Shown here piece by piece: positions 2,022 to 16,421 of a stretch of DNA of 64,000 nucleotides. This DNA is from a virus. The position numbers and the translations under genes were made by a program. Position 1 is the stretch's first letter, and each line of letters starts with the position of its first letter. The notes below the pieces were generated by a model. The model worked only from the letters and a program-made list of their open reading frames with translations. It ran no database searches and had not been told where the DNA came from. Where the stretch lies: IMG/VR virus record IMGVR_UViG_3300002092_000025; one strand, given 5' to 3'.

Positions 2022-2022
2022 T

Positions 2023-2223: not shown

Positions 2224-2224
2224 A

Positions 2225-2374: not shown

Positions 2375-2378
2375 CCAG

Positions 2379-2406
2379 TTGACGCAGCCTACAGACGTGC
2401 TATTAT
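2379..2406 (+). promoter_or_regulatory. Early sigma70 promoter, type A
   Basis: TTGACG-N13-TGCTATTAT. Confidence 0.85.
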
Positions 2407-2431
2407 ATAAGCATAAACAAAGGAGCATGAA

Positions 2432-2853: not shown

Positions 2854-3067
2854 CGTCTACGTCATTACCCGCGAGGACACGACCGATCGCTCCAGTCAGA
2901 TCATGGGGGTGTTCCCCGCAGAAGGGTTGGCAGAGATCGCCCGCGTGGTGCTGGAGCGGCGTATGACCAATGAGGATAAGGACGCCGGCATCTTCTTCCG
3001 CATCACAGCCTACCAACTGGGTAAACTGTATCCAGTTGACGTAGCCTTGTTAGATGCTATTATATAA
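2846..3067 (+). CDS. Hypothetical early protein
   Basis: Overlapping start; the ORF reads through the next promoter. Confidence 0.7.
   Translation: MDNVYVITREDTTDRSSQIMGVFPAEGLAEIARVVLERRMTNEDKDAGIFFRITAYQLGKLYPVDVALLDAII
3036..3063 (+). promoter_or_regulatory. Early sigma70 promoter, type A
   Basis: TTGACG-N13-TGCTATTAT. Confidence 0.85.
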
Positions 3068-3099
3068 ACATAAGCAAAACAGACACACAGGAGCACATC

Positions 3100-3585
3100 A
3101 TGGGTTTAGATATGTATCTCACCGGTAAGCGGTATATGGCATCTTGGATCGACTCTGCTGATACTGAAAAGCAATCCGCGATCCAGACGCTGTTCCCCGA
3201 ACTGGCAAATCTCCCAGGGGCCCATAGCGATAACCCTGTCCGTGAAGTCCGCATTGAGGCTGGCTACTGGCGCAAGGCCAACGCCATCCACGATTGGTTC
3301 GTTAAGAACGTCCAGGACGGCAAGGACGAATGCCAACCTCACTATGTGAGCCGTGAAGATTTGGCTGAACTCAAGACGCTATGCGAACGGGCCATTGCGG
3401 CTCGTGGGCGCGACTTTGAAGAAGAAACGTCCGAAGACATACTGCCCACTGCCAGCGGGTTCTTCTTTGGTGGCACCGAATACGACGATTGGTATTACGA
3501 TAATCTGGCTGACACGATCATAATCGTAGATCGTTGCTTGGCTCTGCCCGACGCTTGGGAATTCGAATACTGCTCCAGTTGGTAA
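3100..3585 (+). CDS. Conserved phage protein (MGLDMYL...YWRKANAIHxWF family)
   Basis: Widely seen motif set including GFFFG and C-terminal YxSSW; AGGAG RBS. Confidence 0.9.
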   Translation: MGLDMYLTGKRYMASWIDSADTEKQSAIQTLFPELANLPGAHSDNPVREVRIEAGYWRKANAIHDWFVKNVQDGKDECQPHYVSREDLAELKTLCERAIAARGRDFEEETSEDILPTASGFFFGGTEYDDWYYDNLADTIIIVDRCLALPDAWEFEYCSSW

Positions 3586-3725
3586 GCCGTGCGCGACACT
3601 GTGTCGCACAGAACAACCGCTATAGACCTACAAAGACGCGGATACACAGGGGCAGAGCAGATCTGCTGTATGCTATACGCAAGAAAAAAACCCCTGCTGT
3701 ATGTGCGTCTTTGTTGGTTGCTACC
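3586..3725 (+). ncRNA. Candidate structured intergenic RNA
   Basis: Long imperfect stem 3626-3652 pairing with 3691-3718, plus palindromes at 3593-3607 and 3656-3667. Confidence 0.45.
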
Positions 3726-3728
3726 CAC

Positions 3729-3756
3729 TTGACGCTGTCGCTGTAGATGCTATTAT
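3729..3756 (+). promoter_or_regulatory. Early sigma70 promoter, type A
   Basis: TTGACG-N13-TGCTATTAT. Confidence 0.85.
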
Positions 3757-3785
3757 ATAAACATAAACAAACAGGGGAAAACATC

Positions 3786-3932
3786 ATGTGGACCACTAAG
3801 TATTTCCGAGACTTTGCGGCCCAATGTGAATGGATCCGCAAGAATCGCAATCGTTATCAGATCACTCCGCTGTTCGTCAACAACGGCTATGCGGTTGAAT
3901 ATAAACTCCTAACCGTGTTGAGGATGGCGTAA
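3786..3932 (+). CDS. Hypothetical early protein (MWTTKYF)
   Basis: AGGGG RBS; start re-assigned downstream of the promoter. Confidence 0.75.
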   Translation: MWTTKYFRDFAAQCEWIRKNRNRYQITPLFVNNGYAVEYKLLTVLRMA

Positions 3933-4008
3933 TGACAGACTATCCAGACCTAGCCTACTGGGGCTCTTGACGTATAGTTTGCTAAACTCAAACCTAAGGA
4001 TAACTGAT

Positions 4009-4191
4009 ATGGCTAAGGTAAAGCAGAAGACAATTTCATTGGAACTGAACGAAGGAGAGTTGGATACTCTCTTCATTGGGCTCGAACGGGCCTGTGATGC
4101 TACCAGCGACAATGAGGACTTCAAATACTTTATGAAACTGATGGCCAAGATCGAAAAGGCCCAGAAGAAACTGATCAAGGAGGCGGCCTAA
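4009..4191 (+). CDS. Hypothetical early protein
   Basis: TAAGGA RBS; start re-assigned to ATG 4009. Confidence 0.75.
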   Translation: MAKVKQKTISLELNEGELDTLFIGLERACDATSDNEDFKYFMKLMAKIEKAQKKLIKEAA

Positions 4192-4427
4192 TGACTGACA
4201 AGACCTTTACCTTTACGATCGAACAGATCAAAGACATCTACCGTGCGGGTATCCGGCGTGGAGAGAATCAGCAATGTGCCTACGATTGGGGCGCTCGTGC
4301 TGGTGGCGGTGAATATGACGAATGTGTGGAGGCTATCCACGATATCGTCAACGACGGATTTAAGTGGGGCGATGTTGGTTATACCCACTACACTGATGTA
4401 GAAGATTGGTTCAAGGAGGCCAAGTGA
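4191..4427 (+). CDS. Hypothetical early protein
   Basis: AAGGAGG RBS, TAATG coupling. Confidence 0.8.
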   Translation: MTDKTFTFTIEQIKDIYRAGIRRGENQQCAYDWGARAGGGEYDECVEAIHDIVNDGFKWGDVGYTHYTDVEDWFKEAK

Positions 4428-4579
4428 TGGACGAAGCAACCTACAGAGTCCTCTTAGAATGTGTGGATCTGATCTTTGATTCCACCGAAGGACCCGCCGC
4501 AATCGTCCTTTCCAAACTAATTGATCTGATCGTTGAATATGAGGATAAACACTATCCTATAGATGAGGAGACTGCTTGA
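4427..4579 (+). CDS. 50-aa protein resembling the N-terminal domain of HigA-type antitoxins (no HTH)
   Basis: MDEATYRVLLECVDLIFDSTEGPAAIVLSKLIDLIVEYEDKHYPIDEETA; AAGGAGG RBS; absent from the ORF track. Confidence 0.65.
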   Translation: MDEATYRVLLECVDLIFDSTEGPAAIVLSKLIDLIVEYEDKHYPIDEETA

Positions 4580-4716
4580 TGTTCACTGTTACCTACTCCT
4601 ATTATGGTACTTACCAGCACGAGAAGACATTCGCTAGTGAGACTGCCGCCAAGAAGTTCTTCTGGTTCATACAGAAGAAGACAGGTGTGACTAAGGTGGA
4701 ATGGAGGGCACTGTAA
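4579..4716 (+). CDS. Hypothetical early protein, 45 aa (MFTVTYSYYG)
   Basis: GAGGAG RBS, TGATG coupling; absent from the ORF track. Confidence 0.7.
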   Translation: MFTVTYSYYGTYQHEKTFASETAAKKFFWFIQKKTGVTKVEWRAL

Positions 4717-4949
4717 TGGACACAGAACAACAGATCCTAGACCTATTCCAACAGGCCAGTTTTCACTTCGCTGACGATACTGGGTCTGAATGGGATCGAG
4801 CCTACTGGTGCTTGGATCGCGCTGCCGAGATCATCGTTGAACAGCGATACCCCCTATACCGTATCAAAGAACTAGTCAGGACCAGCGATAGCCTGATCGA
4901 TATCGATACGATCTTGACCAGGGTGCTCAAACAGGCGTATGGACAATGA
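4716..4949 (+). CDS. Hypothetical early protein
   Basis: GGAGG RBS, TAATG coupling. Confidence 0.75.
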   Translation: MDTEQQILDLFQQASFHFADDTGSEWDRAYWCLDRAAEIIVEQRYPLYRIKELVRTSDSLIDIDTILTRVLKQAYGQ

Positions 4950-5299
4950 TTGATCTTGCGAAAAAATATGGCAGTAGAGGTCTTACCTTGGGGGACTTGA
5001 CCGACCTGTTGGATTGGGACAAATGTCCTTCATGTTATATGATCAAAATGGTATTATCTGATAATACGCATGAGACCGTAGAGTATTGGTATCATACGAT
5101 TGGGACCCTAGAGTTTTGGCTTGAAGAAAATAGAAAACATAAGGTAGATTATTTTTGGAAAGAAGAATGGGAATACGACTCCGACGGTGGAGTCGCAGAT
5201 TATTGTATTAAATTCTATATTGCCAATCCAAAAGATGTGACACAGATATGCCTAATTTGGCCCATTGAAAAGGTCTATGCGCCATTTGAACACGATTAA
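4946..5299 (+). CDS. Hypothetical protein
   Basis: ATGA coupling; AT-richer than neighbours. Confidence 0.75.
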   Translation: MIDLAKKYGSRGLTLGDLTDLLDWDKCPSCYMIKMVLSDNTHETVEYWYHTIGTLEFWLEENRKHKVDYFWKEEWEYDSDGGVADYCIKFYIANPKDVTQICLIWPIEKVYAPFEHD

Positions 5300-5304
5300 C
5301 CCAG

Positions 5305-5332
5305 TTGACATAGCCCTGCGATATGCTATTAT
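5305..5332 (+). promoter_or_regulatory. Early sigma70 promoter, type A
   Basis: TTGACA-N13-TGCTATTAT. Confidence 0.85.
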
Positions 5333-5363
5333 AAAGCATAAACAAACACAACAGGAGCACACC

Positions 5364-5642
5364 ATGAGCAGCATCTATACACGCAAGGAAGAGGAAACTG
5401 TTCTCCGTAAAATGGAAGACTTCCTGGGCGACTTTACCTACACTGCGGAAAAGGAAATAGATTGGGAACTCAGCGATATCTTTAAATCTGAGGAAATCCT
5501 GCCCAAGATGAAAGCCCTGTATGAGGCTGTCTACGCTATCCAGGAAATGGTAGAGGAACGCCTGTCAACCTTGGAATTGGAGATCGAGGACGAGGACTAT
5601 TTCTTTGAACAGTTAGAAGACGCAATCAAGGAAGCCGCTTGA
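5364..5642 (+). CDS. Acidic hypothetical early protein
   Basis: AGGAG RBS; start re-assigned; very D/E rich. Confidence 0.8.
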   Translation: MSSIYTRKEEETVLRKMEDFLGDFTYTAEKEIDWELSDIFKSEEILPKMKALYEAVYAIQEMVEERLSTLELEIEDEDYFFEQLEDAIKEAA

Positions 5643-5666
5643 CGTATAGCCTATAGATGCTATTAT
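5639..5666 (+). promoter_or_regulatory. Early sigma70 promoter, type A
   Basis: TTGACG-N13-TGCTATTAT. Confidence 0.85.
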
Positions 5667-5698
5667 ATAAACATAAACAAACACAACAGGAGCACACT

Positions 5699-6022
5699 AT
5701 GATCTGGGCAGAAAATTTTATCCGAAACGATATTAACCCTAAAGTCCGTGAGTTCGTATACACCCTCCCAAAGGTCTCCGCTAAGGCAATAGGTCTAGAC
5801 GAACGCTGTGGGTTGGTCTATGTGGCAGATGACGCGATCATAGTCTATGTGGCTAACGACCGCCAACTCCAATACTACGGTGGGTTTGAATACGTATCCA
5901 AGTCATACCGTTGTGGTGTGGGTGACTTCGTGTTCTACTTCGCAGACGATGAACGTGTGAGCGACTGCTTGGATCACTTTAGGGTCGACCAAAAAGACAA
6001 AGCCCAGGAAGAACTAGCATGA
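5699..6022 (+). CDS. Hypothetical early protein (LQYYGGFEYV motif)
   Basis: AGGAG RBS; start re-assigned. Confidence 0.8.
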   Translation: MIWAENFIRNDINPKVREFVYTLPKVSAKAIGLDERCGLVYVADDAIIVYVANDRQLQYYGGFEYVSKSYRCGVGDFVFYFADDERVSDCLDHFRVDQKDKAQEELA

Positions 6023-6222
6023 GCGGAGGCTGGCATAGGGTAAGACACACAGACTGGGCCACTTGGATTAGGCCCGGTCTACTCATAGCCTACGGTGAGG
6101 GTGATCCCCCCACAGATGGGTATCTGGCTAGGGTCAGCCCAGACCTAACAGTAAATGGGCTAGACTTTGAATTCATATTCAGCCAATATGAATGGGTCCT
6201 GATCCTTACCGAGGATATATAA
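6019..6222 (+). CDS. Hypothetical early protein
   Basis: ATGA coupling. Confidence 0.7.
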   Translation: MSGGWHRVRHTDWATWIRPGLLIAYGEGDPPTDGYLARVSPDLTVNGLDFEFIFSQYEWVLILTEDI

Positions 6223-6226
6223 GAGC

Positions 6227-6400
6227 ATGAGCAACCCAAGAGAACTATTACAAAAGAAAATTGAGCAGGCCGTTAAAGAATTCCAAGCCCAGGGTGGTAA
6301 GATACAGAAGATCCCCGAGGGCCAGAAGACAGACCCCGCGGAACTAAAGAACCAATGGGGTCGCCCTCGCAAGAAGAAGCCAGTTGACACAGCCAAGTAA
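6227..6400 (+). CDS. SutA-like RNA-polymerase-binding microprotein with C-terminal GRPRKK (AT-hook-like)
   Basis: MSNPRELLQKKIEQAVKEFQAQGGKIQKIPEG...WGRPRKKK; absent from the ORF track. Confidence 0.65.
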   Translation: MSNPRELLQKKIEQAVKEFQAQGGKIQKIPEGQKTDPAELKNQWGRPRKKKPVDTAK

Positions 6401-6411
6401 GATGCTATTAT
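6384..6411 (+). promoter_or_regulatory. Early sigma70 promoter, type A
   Basis: TTGACA-N13-TGCTATTAT. Confidence 0.85.
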
Positions 6412-6442
6412 ATAAGCATAAACAAACACACAGGAGCACACT

Positions 6443-6793
6443 ATGAGTGGTTGGCATATCGTCCACAAGAAAGCACCCTACGATTCAGTTAAGTGGTACG
6501 CAACAGAACGTGGCGCGAAGATCGGCGTCCGTGCAAGTAATAAGAACGCAGGGTGGCGTCGTGTTTCACCCTGCTGGACCAACGGTATCTATATGGAATG
6601 GGCTGAGAAAGATAACCAATACGACTACGCACCCTACCAAGTAATGAGCGACTATGATTACCAAAAGAAGTGGGTCGACGCCCTACCTGTTAAGGTTAAG
6701 AGCCTCATGGATAGCACAAAAGAAATAGAGATCCACCCCAGCAAGGTTGGAACGCATATGGACCCCAGCCAAGAACGCTATTGGAGCCAATAA
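6443..6793 (+). CDS. Conserved phage hypothetical protein (VKSLM...DPSQERYWS)
   Basis: AGGAG RBS; C-terminal motif recurrent in phage early proteins. Confidence 0.85.
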   Translation: MSGWHIVHKKAPYDSVKWYATERGAKIGVRASNKNAGWRRVSPCWTNGIYMEWAEKDNQYDYAPYQVMSDYDYQKKWVDALPVKVKSLMDSTKEIEIHPSKVGTHMDPSQERYWSQ

Positions 6794-6794
6794 G

Positions 6795-6977
6795 ATGAAC
6801 GAAGAACAGCACACGATCAATAAGGTTATTCTAGAACTGATCGCAGAACAGGCCAATCGTATCACTAAACTAGAAGCAGATGTGAAACGACTACAGAGCA
6901 AGAACACCTTCCGTAGTCTGGGCAAGGGTAAGAACTGCGAAAAACCTTCAATTGAAAAGGTCGTGATAGCATCATGA
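6795..6977 (+). CDS. Hypothetical coiled-coil protein
   Basis: GGAG RBS; start re-assigned to ATG 6795. Confidence 0.65.
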   Translation: MNEEQHTINKVILELIAEQANRITKLEADVKRLQSKNTFRSLGKGKNCEKPSIEKVVIAS

Positions 6978-6981
6978 CTAA

Positions 6982-7176
6982 ATGGATGCTCATGCTACCC
7001 ATACTGCTCTTACTGCTATGGATCCACTCTCTTATATTACTAGTGGAAACGGGTGGACCTTGAGATTTGATGAACCATATCACACTATACTATTATGGAT
7101 CGGCGAGCATTGGTATGTGCTCGCTATCCTACTCTACATGCTAGTCCAATATTGGAAAGAAAAGAACCTGATCTAA
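6982..7176 (+). CDS. Small membrane protein (start could be 7018)
   Basis: Hydrophobic stretch WYVLAILLYMLVQYW. Confidence 0.55.
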   Translation: MDAHATHTALTAMDPLSYITSGNGWTLRFDEPYHTILLWIGEHWYVLAILLYMLVQYWKEKNLI

Positions 7177-7442
7177 TGCCCGAGAATAACCTCAACGAGG
7201 TTCGCGCGATTTTTCCACACACGATCGCCGTATACCATATCCAACACAGTAGAGCAGCACACGATCTGATCAAATGGTGTATGGATAACTTCCAACACGA
7301 CTGGACTAAACACTTCGTAGACGGTATAGTCTATATCCAACTGGAACAAGAGTCCGACTTATCACTGTTCTTACTATATTGGGGTCAGGATAATCGTATA
7401 GACTATACTATAATAGATATCCTAAGCGAACTGGGACTATAA
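7176..7442 (+). CDS. Hypothetical protein
   Basis: TAATG coupling; WC..NF...D..LFLLYW pattern. Confidence 0.7.
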   Translation: MPENNLNEVRAIFPHTIAVYHIQHSRAAHDLIKWCMDNFQHDWTKHFVDGIVYIQLEQESDLSLFLLYWGQDNRIDYTIIDILSELGL

Positions 7443-7445
7443 CAT

Positions 7446-7739
7446 ATGATCACAACTATAACACTCCATGGCAATACACACCAATGCATCGAGATAAGCG
7501 AATGGATCACGAATCGTGGATACACGCACGATCAAGATTATACTTGGAGCAGAGTAGATCGTAATGGTGAGAGGTATATACTGATCCATACACGTGAAGC
7601 CAAACTAGCCACACTGGTAGCACTACAGTTCTCAAACCTAAACCCAATACAGGGTATACACCCAGATCTCAAACAGGGAGGAGATCAACTTCGAACTGAA
7701 ACTATGTGGCTAGGATCCGTATCGCACAACCACATATAG
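7446..7739 (+). CDS. Hypothetical protein
   Basis: ORF in operon orientation. Confidence 0.7.
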   Translation: MITTITLHGNTHQCIEISEWITNRGYTHDQDYTWSRVDRNGERYILIHTREAKLATLVALQFSNLNPIQGIHPDLKQGGDQLRTETMWLGSVSHNHI

Positions 7740-7814
7740 GCCCCGCTGTGACTATAAGCACAATACCAATACCCTATACACACAATGGCCCCGCTGTGGG
7801 CAATAGGCATACAG

Positions 7815-8135
7815 ATGAAACAACACGCCTACTTCGTCAGTGGACTAACAACGAACCAAAAGACCTTCTTAGAGTCTAATGGCTGCAGCATAGAACAGAA
7901 CTTAAAACGAACCCATCTCAACTATTGGCTCTCAACAGAAGGCGTTAAGGTCACAGTAAAGAACGAACAGGGCAAAGACGCATGGGGCCTCATACAGAAC
8001 AGTGATCTAACCGTAATACAGAGTTTGGTTTATACTCCAGAACCACATAAGCCGTTAAGTGGGACTAGAGCAGATTGGGTTATAGTGGATGAGGTTGAGA
8101 CTATAAGCGAAGAACTGTGGAGCGGAACCGTTTGA
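7815..8135 (+). CDS. Hypothetical protein
   Basis: ORF; start uncertain (7785 or 7815). Confidence 0.55.
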   Translation: MKQHAYFVSGLTTNQKTFLESNGCSIEQNLKRTHLNYWLSTEGVKVTVKNEQGKDAWGLIQNSDLTVIQSLVYTPEPHKPLSGTRADWVIVDEVETISEELWSGTV

Positions 8136-8158
8136 TATATCATGAGATCTGTTTGAAA

Positions 8159-8226
8159 TAACAGTTTGGGACAGAGTGTAACAGAATTGGGACAGATTGG
8201 GACAGAATTGGGACAGATTGGACATG
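8159..8226. repeat. Tandem 10-11 bp repeat array (ACAG[A]ATTGGG)
   Basis: ACAG at 8161, 8171, 8181, 8192, 8202, 8213 and ACAT at 8222. Confidence 0.85.
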
Positions 8227-8293
8227 TGGATATAAACATATCTTTATATCATTGTCGCTATACCTGCCGAGACCATCCCCTGAGAATCCTGCG

Positions 8294-8465
8294 GCCCACA
8301 GTAGACCACCATAGACCACCGTTCACACCAGCCAATTGAATGGTTCAGATCTGGAGATAATATGAATATATTCACATTCTGGAGTGGTCGGATCTGGTCG
8401 ATCCGCCATCGTAGACCACGATCCGGACCGGTCTGCCACGGTGAACCAACCACGATCAGCCACAG
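8294..8465. repeat. Degenerate 10-bp-phased (TAGA)CCAC repeats
   Basis: CCAC/CCAT/CCAA at 8296, 8306, 8316, 8406, 8416, 8436, 8446, 8450, 8460; TAGACCAC three times. Confidence 0.6.
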
Positions 8466-8485
8466 TGACTCTATACTATACAGTA

Positions 8486-8514
8486 AGGATAGCACGATTC
8501 CAGAACTGCGTCAA
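8486..8514 (-). promoter_or_regulatory. Antisense sigma70-type promoter
   Basis: Minus strand TTGACG-N14-TGCTATCCT. Confidence 0.55.
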
Positions 8515-8630
8515 GCGGATCCATAATGGATTGGGCGATCCACATAGGGATCTTGTGGAATTCTGGTCTGGGCGGGAATCCAGGATTCACCAACACTCTC
8601 GGCTCCCCAGTATCCCTGGACCTCAAGTAT

Positions 8631-8658
8631 ATAATAGCACGTCTGCACTCTGCGTCAA
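8631..8658 (-). promoter_or_regulatory. Antisense early promoter with the full consensus
   Basis: Minus strand TTGACG-cagagtgcagacg-TGCTATTAT. Confidence 0.8.
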
Positions 8659-8691
8659 CCTGGGCGGTCTAGGCCCCGCTGCTAGGGGCAT

Positions 8692-8719
8692 TTGACAAGC
8701 CCGTATTGTGTGCTATTAT
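8692..8719 (+). promoter_or_regulatory. Early sigma70 promoter, type B (no ORF before next promoter)
   Basis: TTGACA-N13-TGCTATTAT-ACATTATAAAC. Confidence 0.85.
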
Positions 8720-8736
8720 ACATTATAAACAAAAAC

Positions 8737-8766
8737 AAGCGCAAGCGCACCATAAGCGCAAGCGCA
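8737..8766. repeat. AAGCGC x4 mini-array
   Basis: Copies at 8737, 8743, 8754, 8760. Confidence 0.8.
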
Positions 8767-8777
8767 AAAAACACTAT

Positions 8778-8805
8778 TTGACACTATGCTAAGACGTGCT
8801 ATTAT
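8778..8805 (+). promoter_or_regulatory. Early sigma70 promoter, type B
   Basis: TTGACA-N13-TGCTATTAT. Confidence 0.85.
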
Positions 8806-8833
8806 ACATTATAAACAAACAACGGAGCGCAAC

Positions 8834-9082
8834 ATGTTGTCTCAAGAGTATATTATAAACAATAGCAAGTATACCCATGATTATGAAGCAGAAGCCATTG
8901 CTAGTTTTGAAGCAACGGGCGACGATAAAATGGACCTGTTGCTTGAACGTTTTGAGAACAGTATTGAGTTTGATGACAGCGACGACCTTGGCGGGCTGTC
9001 TGTATACTTTAAAGACGGCAAGATGGTAGCCTTTTACGACTATGAGAACTTCCGTGGCAGCAACGAATTGCTGTCTGCTTGA
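8834..9082 (+). CDS. Acidic hypothetical early protein
   Basis: GGAG RBS; start re-assigned to ATG 8834. Confidence 0.8.
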   Translation: MLSQEYIINNSKYTHDYEAEAIASFEATGDDKMDLLLERFENSIEFDDSDDLGGLSVYFKDGKMVAFYDYENFRGSNELLSA

Positions 9083-9106
9083 CGTGCTTATAGAACGTGC
9101 TATTAT
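9079..9106 (+). promoter_or_regulatory. Early sigma70 promoter, type B
   Basis: TTGACG-N13-TGCTATTAT. Confidence 0.85.
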
Positions 9107-9137
9107 ACATTATAAACATTAACAACGGAGCAAACAA

Positions 9138-9323
9138 ATGGCTACTTTCCTCGCACAACGTGTCGTCACTTATTTTACAAAAATTGAAGCAGACAGCCAA
9201 GACGCCGCACAAGACGCCGCAGACGCCTTAGCAATGGAAAAAGACGGCATTGTTGATACTAAGACTTGGTCCGTAGGGGCTGACGAACTTACGGTTGAAG
9301 AGGACGACCATACAGACTTTTAA
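9138..9323 (+). CDS. Acidic hypothetical early protein
   Basis: GGAG RBS. Confidence 0.8.
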   Translation: MATFLAQRVVTYFTKIEADSQDAAQDAADALAMEKDGIVDTKTWSVGADELTVEEDDHTDF

Positions 9324-9329
9324 GCAAGG

Positions 9330-9357
9330 TTGACGTGCTGATAAGACGTGCTATTAT
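9330..9357 (+). promoter_or_regulatory. Early sigma70 promoter, type B
   Basis: TTGACG-N13-TGCTATTAT. Confidence 0.85.
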
Positions 9358-9388
9358 ACATTATAAACAAAACGCAACGGAGCGCAAA

Positions 9389-9637
9389 ATGAGCAAGCAA
9401 TTCACAGTCGTTGGAACTAGCGTCCTCAATGGTGTCCTCAAAGTCCGCTTTGCTAACGATTTAGCAAGCCGCATCAAAGTATTGGGTCGCAACGGGCACA
9501 CGGACATTAACCTTATCTATTGTGCTTACGAAATGGATAAAGTAGACGCTGTTAAATTTGCCATTACGCAAGAAACCCAGTTTAACGAAGTAGAGCGTGA
9601 ATTGTTTGCTGCCTATATTAAAGCAAACGAGTTTTAA
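9389..9637 (+). CDS. Conserved jumbo-phage protein (KVRFAND...GHTD family), paralog 1
   Basis: GGAG RBS; clear paralog of 11082-11309. Confidence 0.85.
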   Translation: MSKQFTVVGTSVLNGVLKVRFANDLASRIKVLGRNGHTDINLIYCAYEMDKVDAVKFAITQETQFNEVERELFAAYIKANEF

Positions 9638-9658
9638 TACTATAAGCACAGGGCGGGG

Positions 9659-9686
9659 TTGACGTGCTCTCGCCCTGTGCTATTAT
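9659..9686 (+). promoter_or_regulatory. Early sigma70 promoter, type B, embedded in a hairpin
   Basis: TTGACG-N13-TGCTATTAT; GCACAGGGCG/CGCCCTGTGC arms flank the -35. Confidence 0.85.
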
Positions 9687-9714
9687 ACATTATAAACAAA
9701 CAACGGAGAACATC

Positions 9715-9939
9715 ATGACAGACGAGACGGCGATATTCAAGGTGACGGTGGTCTCCAACGGCAATCCGTTTTATCTGCGCAACACGGTGTGGACCAGCGA
9801 TCCCGACCGAGCCACTGAGTTCGAATCGTGGAACGAGGCTCTCGCAGGCCTGCGCAAGGCTGAGAAGTTCATGAAGTCTTCCATATACAAAAAGGCTGAG
9901 ATCAAACTGTTCGACGAGAACACAAAGACCCTAGGTTGA
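9715..9939 (+). CDS. Hypothetical early protein
   Basis: GGAG RBS; start re-assigned. Confidence 0.8.
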   Translation: MTDETAIFKVTVVSNGNPFYLRNTVWTSDPDRATEFESWNEALAGLRKAEKFMKSSIYKKAEIKLFDENTKTLG

Positions 9940-9963
9940 CGTGCTGTTAGGGTGTGCTATTAT
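9936..9963 (+). promoter_or_regulatory. Early sigma70 promoter, type B
   Basis: TTGACG-N13-TGCTATTAT. Confidence 0.85.
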
Positions 9964-9994
9964 ACATTATAAACATTAACAACGGAGCAAGCAG

Positions 9995-10174
9995 ATGAGC
10001 AGCATCGTAACCCACGCAAAGCGGATTGACCAAGGACTTGCGGACATCGTCGCTGAGTATATAGCCTCCAAGGGTGTCACAGTATGCCGCCCTGGGGCAA
10101 AGTCTACCAAGTCGCAGGGTAGCAAGCACGCCGGGAAGAGCACCTATATGAAGGGCAGCCGTAGGGCGGCCTAA
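9995..10174 (+). CDS. 59-aa basic protein, weakly SutA-like
   Basis: LADIVAEYIASKGVTVCRPG; GGAG RBS; absent from the ORF track. Confidence 0.65.
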   Translation: MSSIVTHAKRIDQGLADIVAEYIASKGVTVCRPGAKSTKSQGSKHAGKSTYMKGSRRAA

Positions 10175-10185
10175 CAAGAGTTTAT

Positions 10186-10260
10186 TCCGACATAGCTCAG
10201 CGGTAGAGTAGGTGGCTGTTAACCACTTGGTCCCTGGTTCGAATCCAGGTGTCGGAGCCA
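10186..10260 (+). tRNA. tRNA-Asn(GTT)
   Basis: TCCGACA/TGTCGGA acceptor, CT-GTT-AA loop, GTTCGAATC, encoded CCA. Confidence 0.95.
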
Positions 10261-10265
10261 ATCAT

Positions 10266-10341
10266 GCCTGCTTAGTGTTAGTGGCTAGCACGTCAGTTTG
10301 TGGAACTGAAAGAGTTGGATCGAAACCAACAGCAGGTACCA
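10266..10341 (+). tRNA. tRNA-His(GTG), alphaproteobacterial type
   Basis: GCCTGCT/AGCAGGT acceptor (G1:U72), A73, CCA; TT-GTG-GA loop; position -1 is T. Confidence 0.9.
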
Positions 10342-10348
10342 ATATAAA

Positions 10349-10426
10349 CTCTCGGTCGCCTAGTCTGGTATGGCACCTGTTTTGGGAACAGGAATAACGT
10401 CGGTTCGAATCCGGCCCGGGAGACCA
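10349..10426 (+). tRNA. tRNA-Pro(TGG)
   Basis: CTCTCGG/CCGGGAG acceptor, TT-TGG-GA loop, CCA. Confidence 0.93.
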
Positions 10427-10438
10427 AATCGAAAAAGG

Positions 10439-10466
10439 TTGACACGATCAGACTCTGTGCTATTAT
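10439..10466 (+). promoter_or_regulatory. Early sigma70 promoter, type B
   Basis: TTGACA-N13-TGCTATTAT. Confidence 0.85.
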
Positions 10467-10493
10467 GTATTATAGACATTAAGGAGCAAGCAG

Positions 10494-10682
10494 ATGAGCA
10501 ACACCACAGCAGGTACTATCCTCACAGTCGTTGGGATTTGGTTCGCTATCCTGGGAGTCTCGGGTATGGAATCCTCGATCAACGATCAATCGCTGTTCGC
10601 CGGTTCGTTGGTCAGCATCGTGGGCGTCGGGGTGTTGGGCTGTGGGGTGTTGATGCTGAGACAGGTTGACAGCAGAGGCTAA
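10494..10682 (+). CDS. Small two-TM membrane protein
   Basis: Two hydrophobic segments; TAAGGAG RBS. Confidence 0.8.
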   Translation: MSNTTAGTILTVVGIWFAILGVSGMESSINDQSLFAGSLVSIVGVGVLGCGVLMLRQVDSRG

Positions 10683-10693
10683 GGTGCTATTAT
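10666..10693 (+). promoter_or_regulatory. Early sigma70 promoter, type B
   Basis: TTGACA-N13-TGCTATTAT. Confidence 0.85.
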
Positions 10694-10725
10694 ACATTAT
10701 AGACATTAAGCAACAGGGGTAGGCG

Positions 10726-11001
10726 ATGTATAACGCGATGACCGACACTGCGATCCGCAAAGCACTCAAGATCCTCCGCAAGAACCGCGACGAGGGACGC
10801 GACGTCCAAGAAGCACAGATCATGATCGACGGAATGATCGACGAGTTGATCCGTAGGAACACAGACCCCTACACCACGGCAGCAGACATCCGCTACTTCG
10901 AGAGCGAAGAGTGTGAGCCCGACTGCGTCACTGGTTGCGATCCTGCGGAGTATGAGGATGAGGATTGGTCCAACCAATCCGCGATCTCCTATACATTATA
11001 G
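10726..11001 (+). CDS. Hypothetical early protein
   Basis: ORF behind promoter. Confidence 0.75.
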   Translation: MYNAMTDTAIRKALKILRKNRDEGRDVQEAQIMIDGMIDELIRRNTDPYTTAADIRYFESEECEPDCVTGCDPAEYEDEDWSNQSAISYTL

Positions 11002-11014
11002 ACCGAGGGGTAGG

Positions 11015-11042
11015 TTGACAACACTAGAACAGATGCTATTAT
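11015..11042 (+). promoter_or_regulatory. Early sigma70 promoter, type B
   Basis: TTGACA-N13-TGCTATTAT. Confidence 0.85.
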
Positions 11043-11081
11043 ACATTATAGACAGTAAGACACACACACAGGAGATACAAC

Positions 11082-11309
11082 ATGTCTAAGTCATTCACAG
11101 TTGCTGGTACTTCCGTCCTCAACGGCAAAGAAAAAGTTCGTTTCGCTAACGATATCGCAACCCGCGTTAAGGTGCTTGCTCGCAACGGGCACACGGATGT
11201 GGACTTGATCGAACTGCCCACAGAGATGGACAAAGAAATGGCTGTGCTGTTCCTCAAGGGACTGGAGCGTTTCAAAGATAAAGAAAGCGTCCTCGCTTAC
11301 ACCGCATAA
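11082..11309 (+). CDS. Conserved jumbo-phage protein (KVRFAND...GHTD family), paralog 2
   Basis: AGGAG RBS; paralog of 9389-9637. Confidence 0.85.
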   Translation: MSKSFTVAGTSVLNGKEKVRFANDIATRVKVLARNGHTDVDLIELPTEMDKEMAVLFLKGLERFKDKESVLAYTA

Positions 11310-11318
11310 GTAAGATCA

Positions 11319-11356
11319 TAGGGAGGTTGACAACAGCCTCCCTACTCTGCTACTAT
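11319..11356 (+). promoter_or_regulatory. Hairpin overlapping the tRNA promoter
   Basis: TAGGGAGGTTG-ACAA-CAGCCTCCCTA stem-loop containing TTGACA; TGCTACTAT downstream. Confidence 0.7.
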
Positions 11357-11378
11357 AAGACAATAGATAATAGTTCGT

Positions 11379-11455
11379 GGGCCTATAGCTCAATTGGTTA
11401 GAGCAACGGTCTCATAAACCGTAGGTTACTGGTTCAAGTCCATTTGGGCCCACCA
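11379..11455 (+). tRNA. tRNA-CAT, probably Ile2 (lysidine) rather than Met
   Basis: GGGCCTA/TGGGCCC acceptor typical of Ile2, CT-CAT-AA loop, CCA. Confidence 0.85.
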
Positions 11456-11464
11456 ACTATTAAG

Positions 11465-11540
11465 GCCCGCGTATTCCAATGGTAGAGAAGGAAGACTTAA
11501 AATCTTCACAGTGTCAGTTCGAATCTGACCGCGGGCACCA
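11465..11540 (+). tRNA. tRNA-Leu(TAA) with short variable loop
   Basis: GCCCGCG/CGCGGGC acceptor, CT-TAA-AA loop, 5-nt variable region, A73, CCA. Confidence 0.9.
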
Positions 11541-11561
11541 TTCCTCATACGAAAGAATAAC

Positions 11562-11780
11562 ATGTTGGATAATGTTTTAAAGTACGTGGGTATGATCGCA
11601 GTGATACTAGGTGCGATCCTCACAAGTCTCCGCATCGATCCCGCGAACATATTCTTCCTCAACCTCGGTGCGCTCGCATATCTGATATGGTCAGTACGTA
11701 TCCGTGAGTGGAACTTGGTAGCAGTCAACGGGACACTCTTAGCGATCTATATCGTTGGGGCGGTGTTGACAAACTCCTAA
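11562..11780 (+). CDS. Small three-TM membrane protein
   Basis: Three hydrophobic helices; resembles half-size PnuC/SemiSWEET-like phage proteins. Confidence 0.75.
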   Translation: MLDNVLKYVGMIAVILGAILTSLRIDPANIFFLNLGALAYLIWSVRIREWNLVAVNGTLLAIYIVGAVLTNS

Positions 11781-11793
11781 CAGATGCTATTAT
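11766..11793 (+). promoter_or_regulatory. Early sigma70 promoter (type A-like leader)
   Basis: TTGACA-N13-TGCTATTAT. Confidence 0.85.
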
Positions 11794-11819
11794 AACAGCA
11801 TAAACAAAGGGAGCAGATC

Positions 11820-12026
11820 ATGTTCGTACTGTCATTAGATCAGGGCTACGATGGCGAGGCATGCTTAGGTGTGTACTCAACACAAGCGAAAGCAGAAGCA
11901 GCCTGGGAAGCATATAAGCTGTGCCCTGTTTACTTCGAAAGCGATTGCTATCTAATCTACAAGATAGCAGTAGACGACAAGCCCCGCATACAGTCGATGG
12001 TAGACGATGGTTCATGGAGAGACTAA
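11820..12026 (+). CDS. Hypothetical early protein (LGVYST..KAE motif)
   Basis: GGGAG RBS. Confidence 0.8.
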   Translation: MFVLSLDQGYDGEACLGVYSTQAKAEAAWEAYKLCPVYFESDCYLIYKIAVDDKPRIQSMVDDGSWRD

Positions 12027-12027
12027 C

Positions 12028-12174
12028 ATGCTGAAGATGAAACGTTATACGGTAGTCATGGACTGCGGCGCACACCTCAATGTAATAGCCACCGGCTGTG
12101 CTAGAGCGTTAGAGATCGCAACACAAGCAGGATGGATGCCCTGGGACATACAGCATATAGAGGAGCGAACATAA
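12028..12174 (+). CDS. Hypothetical protein, 48 aa
   Basis: GGAG RBS; TAATG coupling to the next gene; absent from the ORF track. Confidence 0.6.
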   Translation: MLKMKRYTVVMDCGAHLNVIATGCARALEIATQAGWMPWDIQHIEERT

Positions 12175-12461
12175 TGTGGCTACTCCTACCCTTAGCAGGT
12201 ATGGCTGCTGGCTACTACCTAGGGCGTGAGAGTCCTGCTGCGATGTGGACTATCATCCTAGTCTGTTGTGTCACTATAGCGATAGGACTAGGTGACCCTG
12301 CCCTAGCTGTGATAGCACTGTGCTGGATGATAGGTATAGCAGTAGCCATAGCCGTCCTACTCAACATCATACCTATCCTACTGTTCCTCTTCGGGGCTGC
12401 TGTTGCCCTACTGTTCATCATAGTACTGTTCACGGGCATCTGTAAGCTGGCGGGGGTGTGA
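12174..12461 (+). CDS. Highly hydrophobic membrane protein
   Basis: GAGGAG RBS; start re-assigned to MWLLLPL. Confidence 0.75.
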   Translation: MWLLLPLAGMAAGYYLGRESPAAMWTIILVCCVTIAIGLGDPALAVIALCWMIGIAVAIAVLLNIIPILLFLFGAAVALLFIIVLFTGICKLAGV

Positions 12462-12462
12462 C

Positions 12463-12588
12463 ATGCGGGTTGGCGATCACATGTGGATCATCACTAGTAT
12501 CGACTCAGGATGGATGCATCACAGTTGGGCTTATTGGGCGGCGGAGAATACGGTTATGGTCAAGGCCATGGTGGTCTGGTCATTCTGA
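12463..12588 (+). CDS. Possible 41-aa protein
   Basis: GGGGGT RBS-like sequence, follows the upstream stop. Confidence 0.4.
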   Translation: MRVGDHMWIITSIDSGWMHHSWAYWAAENTVMVKAMVVWSF

Positions 12589-12793: not shown

Positions 12794-13120
12794 TTATCGT
12801 TTTATATATTGGTGGATGAACTGTTTAAGATGTTCTGGGCTCTTTATTATTCTTCTCACCTGTATGTGTCTTTCTTTAGGCAGTAGTTCACCTAGAGTCA
12901 ATAGTATTTTATGACTCAACACACTGCTTAGATTCATCTCGCTACCATCTTGGAATACGATTGGTCTATTACCCTGTCTATCGATATTCTTCATTAGCTG
13001 CATCTGTATATTAGCATCACCAAGGTCTTTACGGTTTCCAAAGTCGTATGCTGTTGGGTCTACCCTCATCGCTCTTATAAAGGGTGATTCTGCTCGTTCT
13101 AAAAGTTCTTTAATTTTCAT
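12794..13120 (-). CDS. Hypothetical protein, candidate internal head protein
   Basis: N-terminus MKIKELLE; coupled to the kinase gene. Confidence 0.75.
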   Translation of the reverse strand: MKIKELLERAESPFIRAMRVDPTAYDFGNRKDLGDANIQMQLMKNIDRQGNRPIVFQDGSEMNLSSVLSHKILLTLGELLPKERHIQVRRIIKSPEHLKQFIHQYIKR

Positions 13121-13764
13121 ACGCCACCTTCCCCTATAGGGTCTGTTATCACTACAGTATCGCCACGTTGCATAAAGTTCCCACTGTGCATATCCCAGTT
13201 CTTCATCCTGCTAAACTTTTGACTCATATCCTTAAACGTGTAGTATAGTTTAGGAAACTCTGCTTTTAATTTAATTCCAGCATGTAGTACCTGTGCTGGA
13301 GTGGGCCACGGACCGTACATACTCCATACAAAACCCATAGCATCTTTGAAACTTTTATCAGTCAATGGATCGAGTTTCTCCATCATAACGAACGCTGTTT
13401 GATTATCAATACTCTTTATCATAGTTATACGGGGTAAGTGTTCATTCTTCTTACTGTATGCTTTACAGTACTCTGCCCATTTGAGATAGTTAGGGTTCTT
13501 ATGGAATAGTTTAATAACCTCATTGGGACGACGGGGATGTTGGAATACTTCACCAAAGTATCCTCTACCCAACTGTACGGGTTTATATCCCATAGCCTTT
13601 ATCTTATCTACGAACTGATCTATACGATCAGTATCAGTATAATCACCCGTACGTATGAATGTAGGATCTTTTTTCATAGCTGCTGCTTGTTTGTATATAG
13701 GGTGTTCTCTATATCCAGTTAGTTCATCTACGGTTGATTCTGTTAATATTTCGTTGATACGCAT
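13117..13764 (-). CDS. Ser/Thr protein kinase, T7 gp0.7-like catalytic domain
   Basis: LGRGYFGEVF Gly loop, VIK, DMHSGNFM catalytic loop, ITDP; N-terminus MRINEILTE. Confidence 0.8.
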   Translation of the reverse strand: MRINEILTESTVDELTGYREHPIYKQAAAMKKDPTFIRTGDYTDTDRIDQFVDKIKAMGYKPVQLGRGYFGEVFQHPRRPNEVIKLFHKNPNYLKWAEYCKAYSKKNEHLPRITMIKSIDNQTAFVMMEKLDPLTDKSFKDAMGFVWSMYGPWPTPAQVLHAGIKLKAEFPKLYYTFKDMSQKFSRMKNWDMHSGNFMQRGDTVVITDPIGEGGV

Positions 13765-13812
13765 CGTTTATTTACCGTTGATCTACTCTGTTTAGTATGT
13801 TATATTATATGT

Positions 13813-13989
13813 ATGGATTGGGATGATCTTGAGCACATAGCGCATCTAGAGCGTGAGATACGAGTATTAGAGTCTCGACTACAGCCCAGCGATACGGGGC
13901 ATATACACACAGCTATAAGTGTATTACGAGAGCGTGTACGTGAGTTGAGTCTACCGTTTGCTGTGGATTTAACAGATGGAATTTGGTAA
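13813..13989 (+). CDS. Conserved 58-aa phage protein (DTGHIHTAISVL)
   Basis: TTGATC-N17-TATATT promoter 6 nt upstream of ATG; absent from the ORF track. Confidence 0.7.
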   Translation: MDWDDLEHIAHLEREIRVLESRLQPSDTGHIHTAISVLRERVRELSLPFAVDLTDGIW

Positions 13990-14078
13990 TGAAAGAAACA
14001 CATACAAGAACTATAGTTAGAATGATTACCTACAGATTAACAGCTTGTTTGCGTATACGTTGGGGAACTGAGCAATAA
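13989..14078 (+). pseudogene. Internally deleted DUF2061-like remnant
   Basis: MKETHTRTIVRMITYRLTA fused directly to CLRIRWG; the central TM part is missing. Confidence 0.5.
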
Positions 14079-14416
14079 TGACATATGTAGTTATGGATAA
14101 TTGTATTAAATGCAAATATATGGATTGCGTGGAAGTTTGTCCAGTTGATTGCTTCTATGAAGGCAACAACATGTTAGTAATCAACCCCGATGAATGTATT
14201 GACTGTGGTGTATGTGAACCCGAGTGTCCAGCTGATGCTATACGTCCCGACACTGCTGCCGATGTTGATTCCTGGATAACATTAAACGACCAGTATAGTC
14301 GTATCTGGCCCAACATAACAATTAAGCGTGAGTCTCCAGCCGATGCCGAGCTGTTTAAGGGCGAGCAGGGTAAGCTAGAGAAGTATTTCAGTCCGGATCC
14401 TGGGCAGGGTGATTAA
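14078..14416 (+). CDS. fdxA: 7Fe ferredoxin FdxA (alphaproteobacterial type)
   Basis: [18 protein letters not shown] and [12 protein letters not shown]; C-terminal WPNIT...[10 protein letters not shown]. Confidence 0.95.
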
Positions 14417-14605: not shown

Positions 14606-16009
14606 TCACTCACCTATGCTCAATTTATAAGAGAATTTCTTACCTTCTTTAAAGGTCTGAGTAGTTGTAGTAGTTCCCTGAGTCTTTTTGTTTTTCCAAG
14701 CTGGTTGCCATTTCTGTCCTGGCTGTAGTTTAGCTGGTGCTGCTTGCGGTGTAGCTGGCTGCTGTTGAGCAGGTTGTTGTAGTTGACTTACGTTACGTTT
14801 AAATCCACCAGCTGCTGGTTGTTGTACAGCAACTCCTGGTTCAGCAGTTGGCACTGTTCCTGGTCCTGGTTGAGCTACTGGTTGAGCAGGAGTCTTAGAT
14901 CCAAATGCACCTTTGATAGCTGCTCCTGCTTTACCTATCGCACCTTTTACTGCACCCATTGCACCGCCTGTTGCGGCTCCCCCTGGTGTTGTTTTGCTGG
15001 CAGCACCTGCCGGAGCTGGCTCAGCTTTTGTTTTCTTCTCGCCGCCTGCCGCCGCGCCGGTTACTGCGCCTTGTACTGCTGCTGACAAGTTCTTTGCGAT
15101 ATCTTGCATTTGTGCTGCGGAAGACAATATCTGGTCTTTCTGCGCTTCTAGTGTTTTATTGACTGCTACAATACCGTCTAACCATTTTTTATAATCCGGT
15201 GAAGCAAAATAAGCACTGATCTGATTAAACTGTTGTTGGGCCGATGCATAATCGCTCGATTTTGCTGCCTTCACGGCTGTATTCCACCAACCCTGTAGTT
15301 TCTGAGCCTCATCAGCTGGGATCATAGTACGCAGATGGCCTGCTGCGCTACCACTTCTACTACCTCCCATCTCTATCCTCTGATAATCTAAATTAGCTTC
15401 GATGACATCTCTGATACCCTTTACAGGGTTCATCTGTATATGCATATTGGCTATAAAATCACCTAGTTCACGTATACCTATCCCTGCGAGCCAACCAAAT
15501 GCTGCGCCTTTTACACTCTTACCTATAGCAGTAGAAGCCTTCTCACCTTTAAGCAATTCATTACCTGCTCGTAGCACTGCGCCAGCTGCTGCACCGCCTG
15601 CTGGTCCTGTTACAAGACTTGCTACCGCAGTTAGCATACCTATGATAAGTCCTTGTTTAACTGGATTTTGTTTAGCCCATTCTCCGTATTTACGAGCAGT
15701 ATCGGCTAACTTAGGATTAGCTGCACCAATCTTTTGAAGTATACCGTCTACTTTTATATCAAAGCCCTGTACTGGTGCAGTTTTCTGTGCTAATTGTCCC
15801 AGTCTATTGATAGCATCGTTAGCTGTCTTTACACCTGATACACCTGCACCTACTGCGGATTTTACAGCGTTCCATACACCTGCTTCATCTAATCGACCTT
15901 CGTTTAGCATAACTTGTCTTAAAGCAAGTGCTTCAAACAGTGCAGCCATTTCTTTGATTTCTGCTTCTTGTCGGCGACTGTTATCAACTATATCGATGTA
16001 ATTTCTCAT
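14606..16009 (-). CDS. Ala/Gly-rich virion protein, candidate ejected/internal protein
   Basis: Start re-assigned to MRNYIDIV (16009) after TAAATA; LNEG/LDEA motifs; hydrophobic GxxxG helices. Confidence 0.75.
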   Translation of the reverse strand: MRNYIDIVDNSRRQEAEIKEMAALFEALALRQVMLNEGRLDEAGVWNAVKSAVGAGVSGVKTANDAINRLGQLAQKTAPVQGFDIKVDGILQKIGAANPKLADTARKYGEWAKQNPVKQGLIIGMLTAVASLVTGPAGGAAAGAVLRAGNELLKGEKASTAIGKSVKGAAFGWLAGIGIRELGDFIANMHIQMNPVKGIRDVIEANLDYQRIEMGGSRSGSAAGHLRTMIPADEAQKLQGWWNTAVKAAKSSDYASAQQQFNQISAYFASPDYKKWLDGIVAVNKTLEAQKDQILSSAAQMQDIAKNLSAAVQGAVTGAAAGGEKKTKAEPAPAGAASKTTPGGAATGGAMGAVKGAIGKAGAAIKGAFGSKTPAQPVAQPGPGTVPTAEPGVAVQQPAAGGFKRNVSQLQQPAQQQPATPQAAPAKLQPGQKWQPAWKNKKTQGTTTTTQTFKEGKKFSYKLSIGE

Positions 16010-16035: not shown

Positions 16036-16050
16036 TATTTATTATAAATA
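16036..16050. promoter_or_regulatory. Back-to-back T4-type late promoters
   Basis: TATTTATTATAAATA gives TATAAATA on + and TAAATA on -. Confidence 0.7.
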
Positions 16051-16055: not shown

Positions 16056-16421
16056 ATGAGAGCAAATGAATTCATAGCGGAAGATGTACATAGGATGCCC
16101 GACGACCATAAGTCATCGATTAAAGGTGCTATCACTACCCCTAAGGGTAATATGAGTACAGGATCTGCTTATCTCAACTATCGTATGGGTATCGCAATGG
16201 CTGGTGCACCAGAGTTTCCTACTAAAGCAACTAATGAAATAGGCGGTGATCCGTTATACAGCACATACACCGATGCTGAATTCGATATTATCAATTACGC
16301 TGCTAAACAAGTTGGTGCTGCTCCTGTTAAGAAAATAACCAACAACCGCAGCGAAGAACTCAGCAATACTAACAAAGTTAGCCCAGTTGCTAAGATAAAA
16401 CGCAACAAGTACGGCGTATAA
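16056..16421 (+). CDS. Candidate internal head protein
   Basis: Start re-assigned to MRANEFIAE, 5 nt after TATAAATA. Confidence 0.8.
   Translation: MRANEFIAEDVHRMPDDHKSSIKGAITTPKGNMSTGSAYLNYRMGIAMAGAPEFPTKATNEIGGDPLYSTYTDAEFDIINYAAKQVGAAPVKKITNNRSEELSNTNKVSPVAKIKRNKYGV

Follow-up and report, generated by a model that had tools for sequence, protein, structure and literature searches.

Why should a giant phage related to T4 encode a protein kinase of the T7 type, and why should this kinase begin with a peptide that resembles the signals by which T4 directs proteins into its capsid? The question is raised by an open reading frame (ORF) of 215 codons in a 64-kb stretch of viral DNA (IMG/VR record IMGVR_UViG_3300002092_000025; hereafter the window, meaning the whole 64,000 nucleotides), whose source is an uncultured freshwater jumbo (giant) myophage. 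An initial annotation had placed a gp0.7-like kinase at 13117-13764 and suggested that it is made late, packaged and delivered with the DNA. The ORF proves genuine but is encoded on the minus strand. In its full form, in which a T7 gp0.7-family kinase with a T4-type leader would be made late, packaged, cleaved and injected with the DNA, we give the proposal an even chance of being correct: comparisons of homology, fold, leader and upstream motif speak for it, while a promoter-like motif with one mismatch and an N-terminus that is native to the kinase family and in part leader-like do not.

All the motifs quoted in that annotation are found in the translated product (LGRGYFGEVFQHP at residues 65-77, PNEVIK at 80-85, DMHSGNFM at 191-198, ITDP at 206-209, and MRINEILTE at the N-terminus), and the gp0.7 motifs it gave are correct, as the alignment shows FDMHSGNIM...ITDPV in T7. 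Homology to gp0.7 (T7K) is borne out by profile matches to PHROG 15752 (T7-type kinase, E = 1.8e-17) and PHROG 2828 (T7K family, E = 6.7e-8, covering residues 55-210); the source database assigns Pfam PF27024 to the protein, and a search with a local copy of the Pfam profiles returned sub-threshold matches only. By tblastn, annotated kinases of T7/T3-like phages are 24-30% identical, and 823 related clusters were retrieved at E≤1e-3 in a search of 1.84 billion representatives. Judged by these scores, the similarity to T7-type kinases is far beyond chance. In a family alignment of 60 sequences G68, K85, E129, D191 and D208 are invariant, with G66, N196 and P209 nearly so (at least 90% for the last two). 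The catalytic residues are intact throughout (Gly loop, Lys85, Asp191/Asn196, Asp208-Pro); replacement by Phe of the Gly of T7K that is equivalent to G68 yields a catalytically dead enzyme, and the DPV motif to which Asp208-Pro209 corresponds has been described in the same study (PMC13645617). The protein, with a pI of 9.2, ends 7 residues past ITDP, where T7 gp0.7 runs for about 140 residues further, and the shutoff/DNA-binding domain is absent. The alignments thus confirm the ORF as a minimal T7 gp0.7-family protein kinase devoid of that C-terminal domain.

A kinase fold is present in an AlphaFold2 model of the protein, with a mean confidence (predicted local distance difference test, pLDDT) of 85.8 and a predicted template modelling score of 0.82; most of residues 1-15 are of low confidence (pLDDT <50 at residues 1-5 and 8-15). 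Compared with the PDB by Foldseek, the model has 219 matches at E≤1e-3; those listed are all protein or small-molecule kinases, with probability about 1.0. The predicted activity is that of a Ser/Thr(/Tyr) protein kinase. Since aminoglycoside phosphotransferases and amicoumacin kinase occur among the fold matches, and the C-lobe is strongly reduced in a protein of only 215 residues, one might think instead of a small-molecule or nucleotide kinase, similar to the aminoglycoside or metabolite kinases. We consider this very improbable: the nearest sequence families are T7-type protein kinases, the motifs specific to T7K (HP..PN.VIK, DMHSGN, ITDP) are common to both proteins, and the top fold matches are mostly Ser/Thr protein kinases.

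The second half of the question concerns the nine residues MRINEILTE, which hold INE-5 and LTE-9 and form a short N-terminal segment ending in Leu/Ile-x-Glu. The DNA pattern of this leader occurs twice in the window, against an expectation of 0.09, and the strict peptide pattern M[RK]xx[DE]ΦΦx[DE] begins 21 of 371 ORFs as compared with 1 of 1634 internal Met positions. Relatives that are 93-97% identical in the kinase part (P0002-P0005, L001:9248-10639, L002-L004) start with MRINEILTES or MRIQELLTES, and between leader and kinase they carry nothing, a ParB_N domain (Pfam E = 5e-6; P0002 and P0004 consist of ParB_N plus kinase), a second ParB-like segment, a 150-residue domain, or, in a further variant (L001, two extra domains), the 150-residue domain and another one separated by VDELLTES. 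After the inserts, the kinase unit always begins with (T/V)(I/V)DELTGYREHP. As read from these alignments, the process at work in these relatives is one of cassette shuffling at repeated leader-like junctions (VDELLTES, DELTGY); in the window kinase, a strict leader seems to be attached to a kinase unit that is complete.

Kinases are not the only proteins behind the 9-mer. In contigs whose TerL is about 65% identical to that of the window it leads Ala/Gly-rich proteins (MRINELILE, MKINELLAE) and a nucleotidyltransferase (MRIVELLNE) encoded directly after the DnaB helicase, in synteny with the window. A locus search, for which the family alignment A2 was too divergent as a seed and a narrower alignment, A3, worked, added 15 viral loci with kinases of the family, some on contigs of up to 518 kb, with other leader-bearing ORFs around the kinases; at the kinase loci of diverse jumbo-phage contigs there is also a 756-aa protein with a GH19 peptidoglycan-hydrolase domain that starts with MRVTEFIAE. 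The leader proteins examined in the window and its close relatives are mostly basic. By these counts and comparisons the leader is a real, portable, N-terminus-specific module that is found on unrelated cargos. No kinase of this family was seen in five large related contigs that are 20-38% complete.

Small leader-bearing ORFs also occur in the cultured Sinorhizobium phage Phosso (469 kb; TerL 49.5% identical; PV764938.1, 327-343 kb, L122), where MKAIEILSE and MRLSEIINE begin proteins of a variable region just past a DnaB-like helicase, the same genomic position as in the window. In one 266-aa relative (P0018) the leader MKLFELIQKE is followed by a twin-arginine-like signal (TTRRGFLKGLGAV...SNA) and then by the kinase. 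One ORF of the structural module in the window (40072-40533, MKRFKDYLIE) was considered as a leader protein and dropped: its PA5oct homologue starts with MKSFRDYYD, and the N-terminus looks like part of the protein.

That the N-terminus is a head-targeting-like feature, as initially suggested, is upheld by the comparison with T4, as the 9-mer is recurrent, portable, and similar to the propeptides of T4 prohead-core proteins. The T4 capsid targeting sequence is MKTYQEFIAE (PMC8442874), and Alt is cleaved at ITE-6 and LTE-619 (PMC5694885); in the T4 record gp24 begins with MAKINELLRE, gp21 with MNEPQLLIE, gp22 with MLKEQLIAE, Inh with MIDKDYIAE and gp67 with MEGLIE, and gp23 contains FLTE↓A. Applied to T4 as a positive control, the 9-mer DNA pattern gave five matches, two of which fall precisely on the start codons of gp21 and gp22. 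With the spacing of the 9-mer there were essentially no matches in Rak2, GAP32, Vibrio phage 2.275.O and T4; Rak2 has one loose match that does not begin with Arg or Lys, and the T4 leaders with Glu at position 6 require a different spacing.

A Peptidase_S77 domain (the gp21 family) is found in Pseudomonas phage PA5oct (E = 7e-25), the closest cultured relative, and in two related genomes (G001 and G003, about 1e-27); the proteases of the relatives begin with M(H/R)QISYLRE, and their capsid proteins have LLE↓G or LTE↓G near the N-terminus. In PA5oct the only informative match to the 9-mer is EST35_0150 (MK797984.1 82921-83142; L128:3922-4143), a basic protein of 73 residues encoded directly after the portal gene, which makes it the positional analogue of T4 gp67. 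It starts with MKINDIITE, compared with MRINEILTE here, and its annotation is that of a structural protein identified by tandem mass spectrometry with electrospray ionization; a kinase domain is absent from it, and PA5oct yielded no kinase of this family.

The initial annotation had also assigned the kinase a late promoter, on account of a TAAATA that is indeed at 13774-13769, exactly 4 nt before the ATG (context GGTAAATAAACGATG), and is kept as CGGTAAATAAA(C/A)GATG in L001-L004. This claim stands in part: TAAATA is tied to leader genes and ATAAATA to structural genes, but the copy in front of the kinase is GTAAATA, with one mismatch. In the window ATAAATA is rarer than expected (15 copies versus 29; sites listed 16036-59294), and 13 of the 15 are just upstream of genes on the same strand, among them TerL, a 912-aa virion protein, tail genes, the 121-aa leader ORF and the Ala/Gly-rich ORF. 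Judged by the genes that follow it, ATAAATA is a mark of late genes in this phage. It is only 5-7 nt from the ATG at TerL (39557), a 581-aa gene (43619), the 912-aa gene (37973) and the 121-aa ORF (16056), a spacing that implies putative leaderless late mRNAs in a T4-type late system. The association with leader genes can be expressed in numbers: TAAATA is found 3-8 nt before the ATG in 11 of 32 leader genes and in 9 of 257 others (Fisher p = 5e-7). At kinases of the family in other contigs the motif is a perfect ATAAATA 5-7 nt from the ATG (L104, L110) or CTAAATA (L103, L106, L112; in L102 located after terminators), and homologues of a gp55-like sigma factor are present in relatives. A promoter scan called no early-type (extended -10) or comparable sigma-70 promoter on the kinase strand upstream of 13764. 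About 40 nt upstream of the kinase there is a TATAAT, discarded as a sigma-70 promoter since it has no TG and no -35 element and was not called by the scan.

In one of these contigs a non-coding stretch of about 480 bp (L102:2060-2540) separates an early array and the two terminator-like hairpins behind it from three kinase genes in tandem; it contains short direct repeats (aaaatcgtgccaac; ttttctccaac; caaagtgtaagtacctt).

A motif so close to the start codon in several late genes, with the leaderless mRNAs it implies, and the domain swaps at repeated leader-like junctions could also be read at the level of nucleic acid. The conserved 5' end would then be a translation module, the start region of leaderless late mRNAs, and a recombination handle for cassettes, and would target no protein. 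We regard this as quite improbable. Copies of the leader differ at synonymous sites (the second codon is CGT, AGA, CGC or AAG) and keep the residue pattern, so that selection acts on the peptide; the leader is also found on genes that have untranslated leaders of the ordinary kind, with sites resembling Shine-Dalgarno sequences; and a recombination handle is compatible with targeting, as proposed for the internal-protein loci of T-even phages (PMC3012670).

A more ordinary explanation is that the kinase is cytoplasmic, produced within the cell in the middle or late phase of infection and left unpackaged. M-R-I-N-E-I-L would in that case be the ancestral N-terminus of T7-type kinases, partly duplicated as MRINEIL...DELTGY, and its likeness to T4 would be coincidental or that of a generic amphipathic helix. 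Several observations lean this way, and they weigh correspondingly against a packaged kinase. The family consensus N-terminus is M[RK][IL]xELxGYKxxPxY in 62 of 148 representatives, which thus start with M-x-[IL]-x-E-L-x-G-Y and have no second Glu, and the strict leader is found in 7 of the 148; the leader may hence be, in part, an ancestral feature of the kinase family. T7 gp0.7 itself begins with MNITDIMN, and its homologue in the Munch jumbophage, which has no leader and is located among small early-looking genes, with MTKQEIFK; neither is known as a packaged protein, and T7K works inside the cell as an early protein (PMC13645617). The promoter-like motif of the kinase is imperfect (GTAAATA, not ATAAATA), and its distance of only 4 nt from the ATG is so short that transcription starting as in T4 would do so at the start codon or within it. 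The head module lies outside the window and no prohead protease candidate was recognized among the window ORFs scanned, so that capsid cleavage sites are known from relatives alone. PA5oct shows no overall enrichment of the 9-mer (5 versus 7 in the control), and its list of virion proteins by mass spectrometry is noisy.

Other observations are left unexplained by a cytoplasmic kinase with an ancestral N-terminus, which we hold to be unlikely. The 9-mer ending in Glu is also present on the nucleotidyltransferase, on the Ala/Gly-rich and GH19 proteins, on the 121-aa family and on the PA5oct head-module protein detected in virions. Variable domains have their insertion point precisely where the 9-mer meets a complete kinase unit, and leader genes are tied to late-type motifs. 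In the model the first 15 residues, mostly of low confidence, are not part of the fold.

If the kinase is instead capsid cargo, the course of events would be as follows. Transcription of the gene would take place late and begin at a gp55-type promoter directly adjoining the start codon, so that the mRNA would be nearly leaderless; a leader-bearing partner of 108 residues would be co-transcribed on it and translationally coupled. MRINEILTE would dock the kinase to the prohead core, and a gp21-like prohead protease would cut the leader off after Glu9 (Leu-Thr-Glu↓Ser), leaving the basic mature kinase in the head with the DNA. The enzyme would then enter the next host with the DNA and phosphorylate host proteins before any phage gene is expressed; its substrates would probably include defence and nucleic-acid-handling proteins.

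The features of the locus are collected in Table 1. The 108-aa partner is kept beside the kinase in L001; it has no Pfam, PHROG or Atlas assignment, and its Atlas search returned only viral hypothetical proteins. The EFIAE of the 121-aa protein matches the EFIAE of the T4 capsid targeting sequence. The 467-aa protein may be an abundant internal head protein; Ala/Gly-rich proteins of like composition in L092 and L093 begin with MRINELILE or MKINELLAE, their likeness to the 467-aa ORF being compositional. On the plus strand, a 58-aa ORF and a 7Fe-type ferredoxin (Fer4 + DUF3470, Pfam E = 4e-16) occupy 13813-14416, and are also kept beside the kinase in L001.

Table 1. Coordinates of the kinase gene, its sequence motifs and its neighbours in the window
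Feature	Position	Strand	Remarks
Kinase ORF, 215 aa	13117..13764	minus	ATG at 13764-13762
Gly-rich ATP loop LGRGYFGEV	13546..13572	minus	Aligns with T7 LGNGHFSAA; G68 = T7K G76
VIK, catalytic lysine K85	13510..13518	minus	K85 invariant in two alignments
Catalytic loop DMHSGN (D191, N196)	13177..13194	minus	Identical to T7 DMHSGN
ITDP, DFG-like Asp208-Pro209(-Ile)	13138..13149	minus	Equivalent of T7K DPV 213-215
Leader MRINEILTE, 9 codons	13738..13764	minus	Predicted cleavage after Glu9, LTE↓S
GTAAATA, one mismatch to late-type ATAAATA	13769..13775	minus	4 nt before kinase ATG; kept in relatives
108-aa basic protein, pI 9.9	12794..13120	minus	Coupled to kinase by ATGA overlap; N-terminus leader-like, MKIKELLERAE
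121-aa basic protein MRANEFIAE	16056..16421	plus	TATAAATA 5 nt before ATG; two paralogues in L001
467-aa basic Ala/Gly/Gln/Pro-rich protein	14606..16009	minus	AATAAATA upstream at 16036-16042
Sigma-70-type promoter TTGATC-17-TATATT with TG	13778..13806	plus	Diverges from kinase; serves small ORF and 7Fe ferredoxin

As regards the phage itself, the TerL of the window is 55% identical to that of PA5oct and 63-82% identical to those of many environmental IMG/VR contigs, and UvsX, UvsY, a gp32-like protein, tail sheath, tail tube and a gp4-like protein are all encoded within the window. Its first 12.5 kb carry on the plus strand small genes behind stereotyped extended -10 promoters and five tRNAs; a minus-strand block from 12.8 kb encodes a DnaB-like helicase, a carbamoyltransferase, UvsX/UvsY, the gp32-like protein and TerL, as well as a head-closure protein, tail tube, tail sheath and fibres. 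A megablast search of window positions 12-17 kb against phage records gave no match, and neither did tblastn against plasmids. The plus-strand array (1-12500) consists of about 20 small genes, each preceded by an extended -10 promoter, near-identical from gene to gene, and an A/C-rich leader that has GGAG(C)A at its end; these mRNA leaders fall into two subtypes, and analogous early arrays are present in the related contigs L102 and L104, each with its own consensus.

Among the relatives, single ORFs with 2-6 tandem complete T7K-like units, each with the catalytic motifs, were also observed (L103:5998-9747; P0013, P0014, P0016). There are thus up to six units per ORF that look active by their motifs, joined by Leu-x-Glu-Leu-x-Gly-Tyr; most unit junctions have the form (L/I)-x-E-L-x-G-Y-K, a possible prohead-protease site.

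How do these features compare with what is known? T7K, a hyperpromiscuous kinase, has been shown to act against many bacterial defence systems, which it disarms through mass phosphorylation (PMC13645617). The window kinase belongs to the same family and has in common with it the Gly loop, the VIK lysine, DMHSGN and DP(V/I), but it is only about 25% identical, has no shutoff/DNA-binding domain and reads DPI rather than DPV. It also comes from a T4-related jumbo myophage and not from a phage of the Autographiviridae, has no predicted early promoter, and bears a T4-type leader; T7K, for its part, is made early and is cytoplasmic. Comparable in architecture are the jumbophage homologues of T7K in the phages Munch (of Salmonella) and G17 (of Escherichia), for which the lack of a shutoff domain and Ile as the third DFG-like residue have been reported, their function being left open (PMC13645617). 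Like the window kinase these consist of the kinase domain alone and are encoded by large myophages; the Munch homologue, however, is reached by tblastn only at E = 0.1, and sits leaderless in a run of small genes. The window kinase, by contrast, is part of a much larger, mostly metagenomic family.

With the capsid-targeted proteins of T4 (IPI-III, Alt, gp24 and the core proteins cut by gp21) the window kinase has in common a leader ending in Leu/Ile-x-Glu, the use of one leader on unrelated, hypervariable and mostly basic cargos, and a gp21-type protease in the lineage. In T4 these proteins are encoded by late genes, and the window kinase has a late-type motif with one mismatch. Alt is an injected host-modifying enzyme, and a constant capsid targeting sequence is carried by diverse internal proteins of T4 (PMC3012670; PMC5512222). 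What differs is the cargo, where a protein kinase (in relatives also its fusions and multi-kinase chains) takes the place of an ADP-ribosyltransferase or restriction inhibitor; the leader found here has the 9-mer form M[RK]xx[DE]ΦΦxE; and packaging and cleavage are predicted from sequence. A third point of reference is given by the polyvalent proteins, whose enzymatic domains are predicted to be injected with the DNA and which recombine like cassettes (Iyer et al. 2017, PMC5512222). Kinase, ParB-like, nucleotidyltransferase and peptidoglycan-hydrolase domains are common to both systems, and ParB_N-kinase fusions occur in near-identical relatives of the window kinase. The kinases of polyvalent proteins, on the other hand, form a separate monophyletic group in (pro)phages of Verrucomicrobia/Chlamydia and Bacteroidetes (PMC5512222), and the polyvalent model relies on MuF, portal or zincin-like protease (MPTase) contexts rather than on a T4-type leader. 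Polyvalent proteins are defined by at least two disparate effector domains, and the window kinase has a single domain.

Injected enzymes (T4 Alt), variable cargos behind a constant targeting sequence, predicted injected kinases of another clade (PMC5512222) and the anti-defence action of T7K are therefore already known; a T7K-family kinase behind a T4-type leader, its fusions and its multi-kinase forms were not found in the literature searched. A broader generalization, which we offer tentatively and consider somewhat doubtful, is that a large T4-related clade of jumbo phages, mostly uncultured, loads a hypervariable arsenal into its capsid by means of a portable 9-residue leader. T7K-type kinases would be part of this arsenal as single domains, as ParB-like or other fusions, and as chains of 4-6 units with junctions cut by the protease (Leu-x-Glu↓Leu-x-Gly-Tyr), and host defences would be phosphorylated at DNA entry, before transcription. 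The locus is unusually plastic, with cargo domains exchanged behind a constant leader. The combination of M[RK]xx[DE]ΦΦxE with an abutting TAAATA offers a simple rule by which capsid cargo may be predicted in environmental jumbo phages. If the kinase is indeed packaged, the principle of T4 Alt and the internal proteins would be extended to protein phosphorylation: T7K must first be expressed, whereas a capsid-borne enzyme released together with the DNA would be at work before sensing or restriction can set in.

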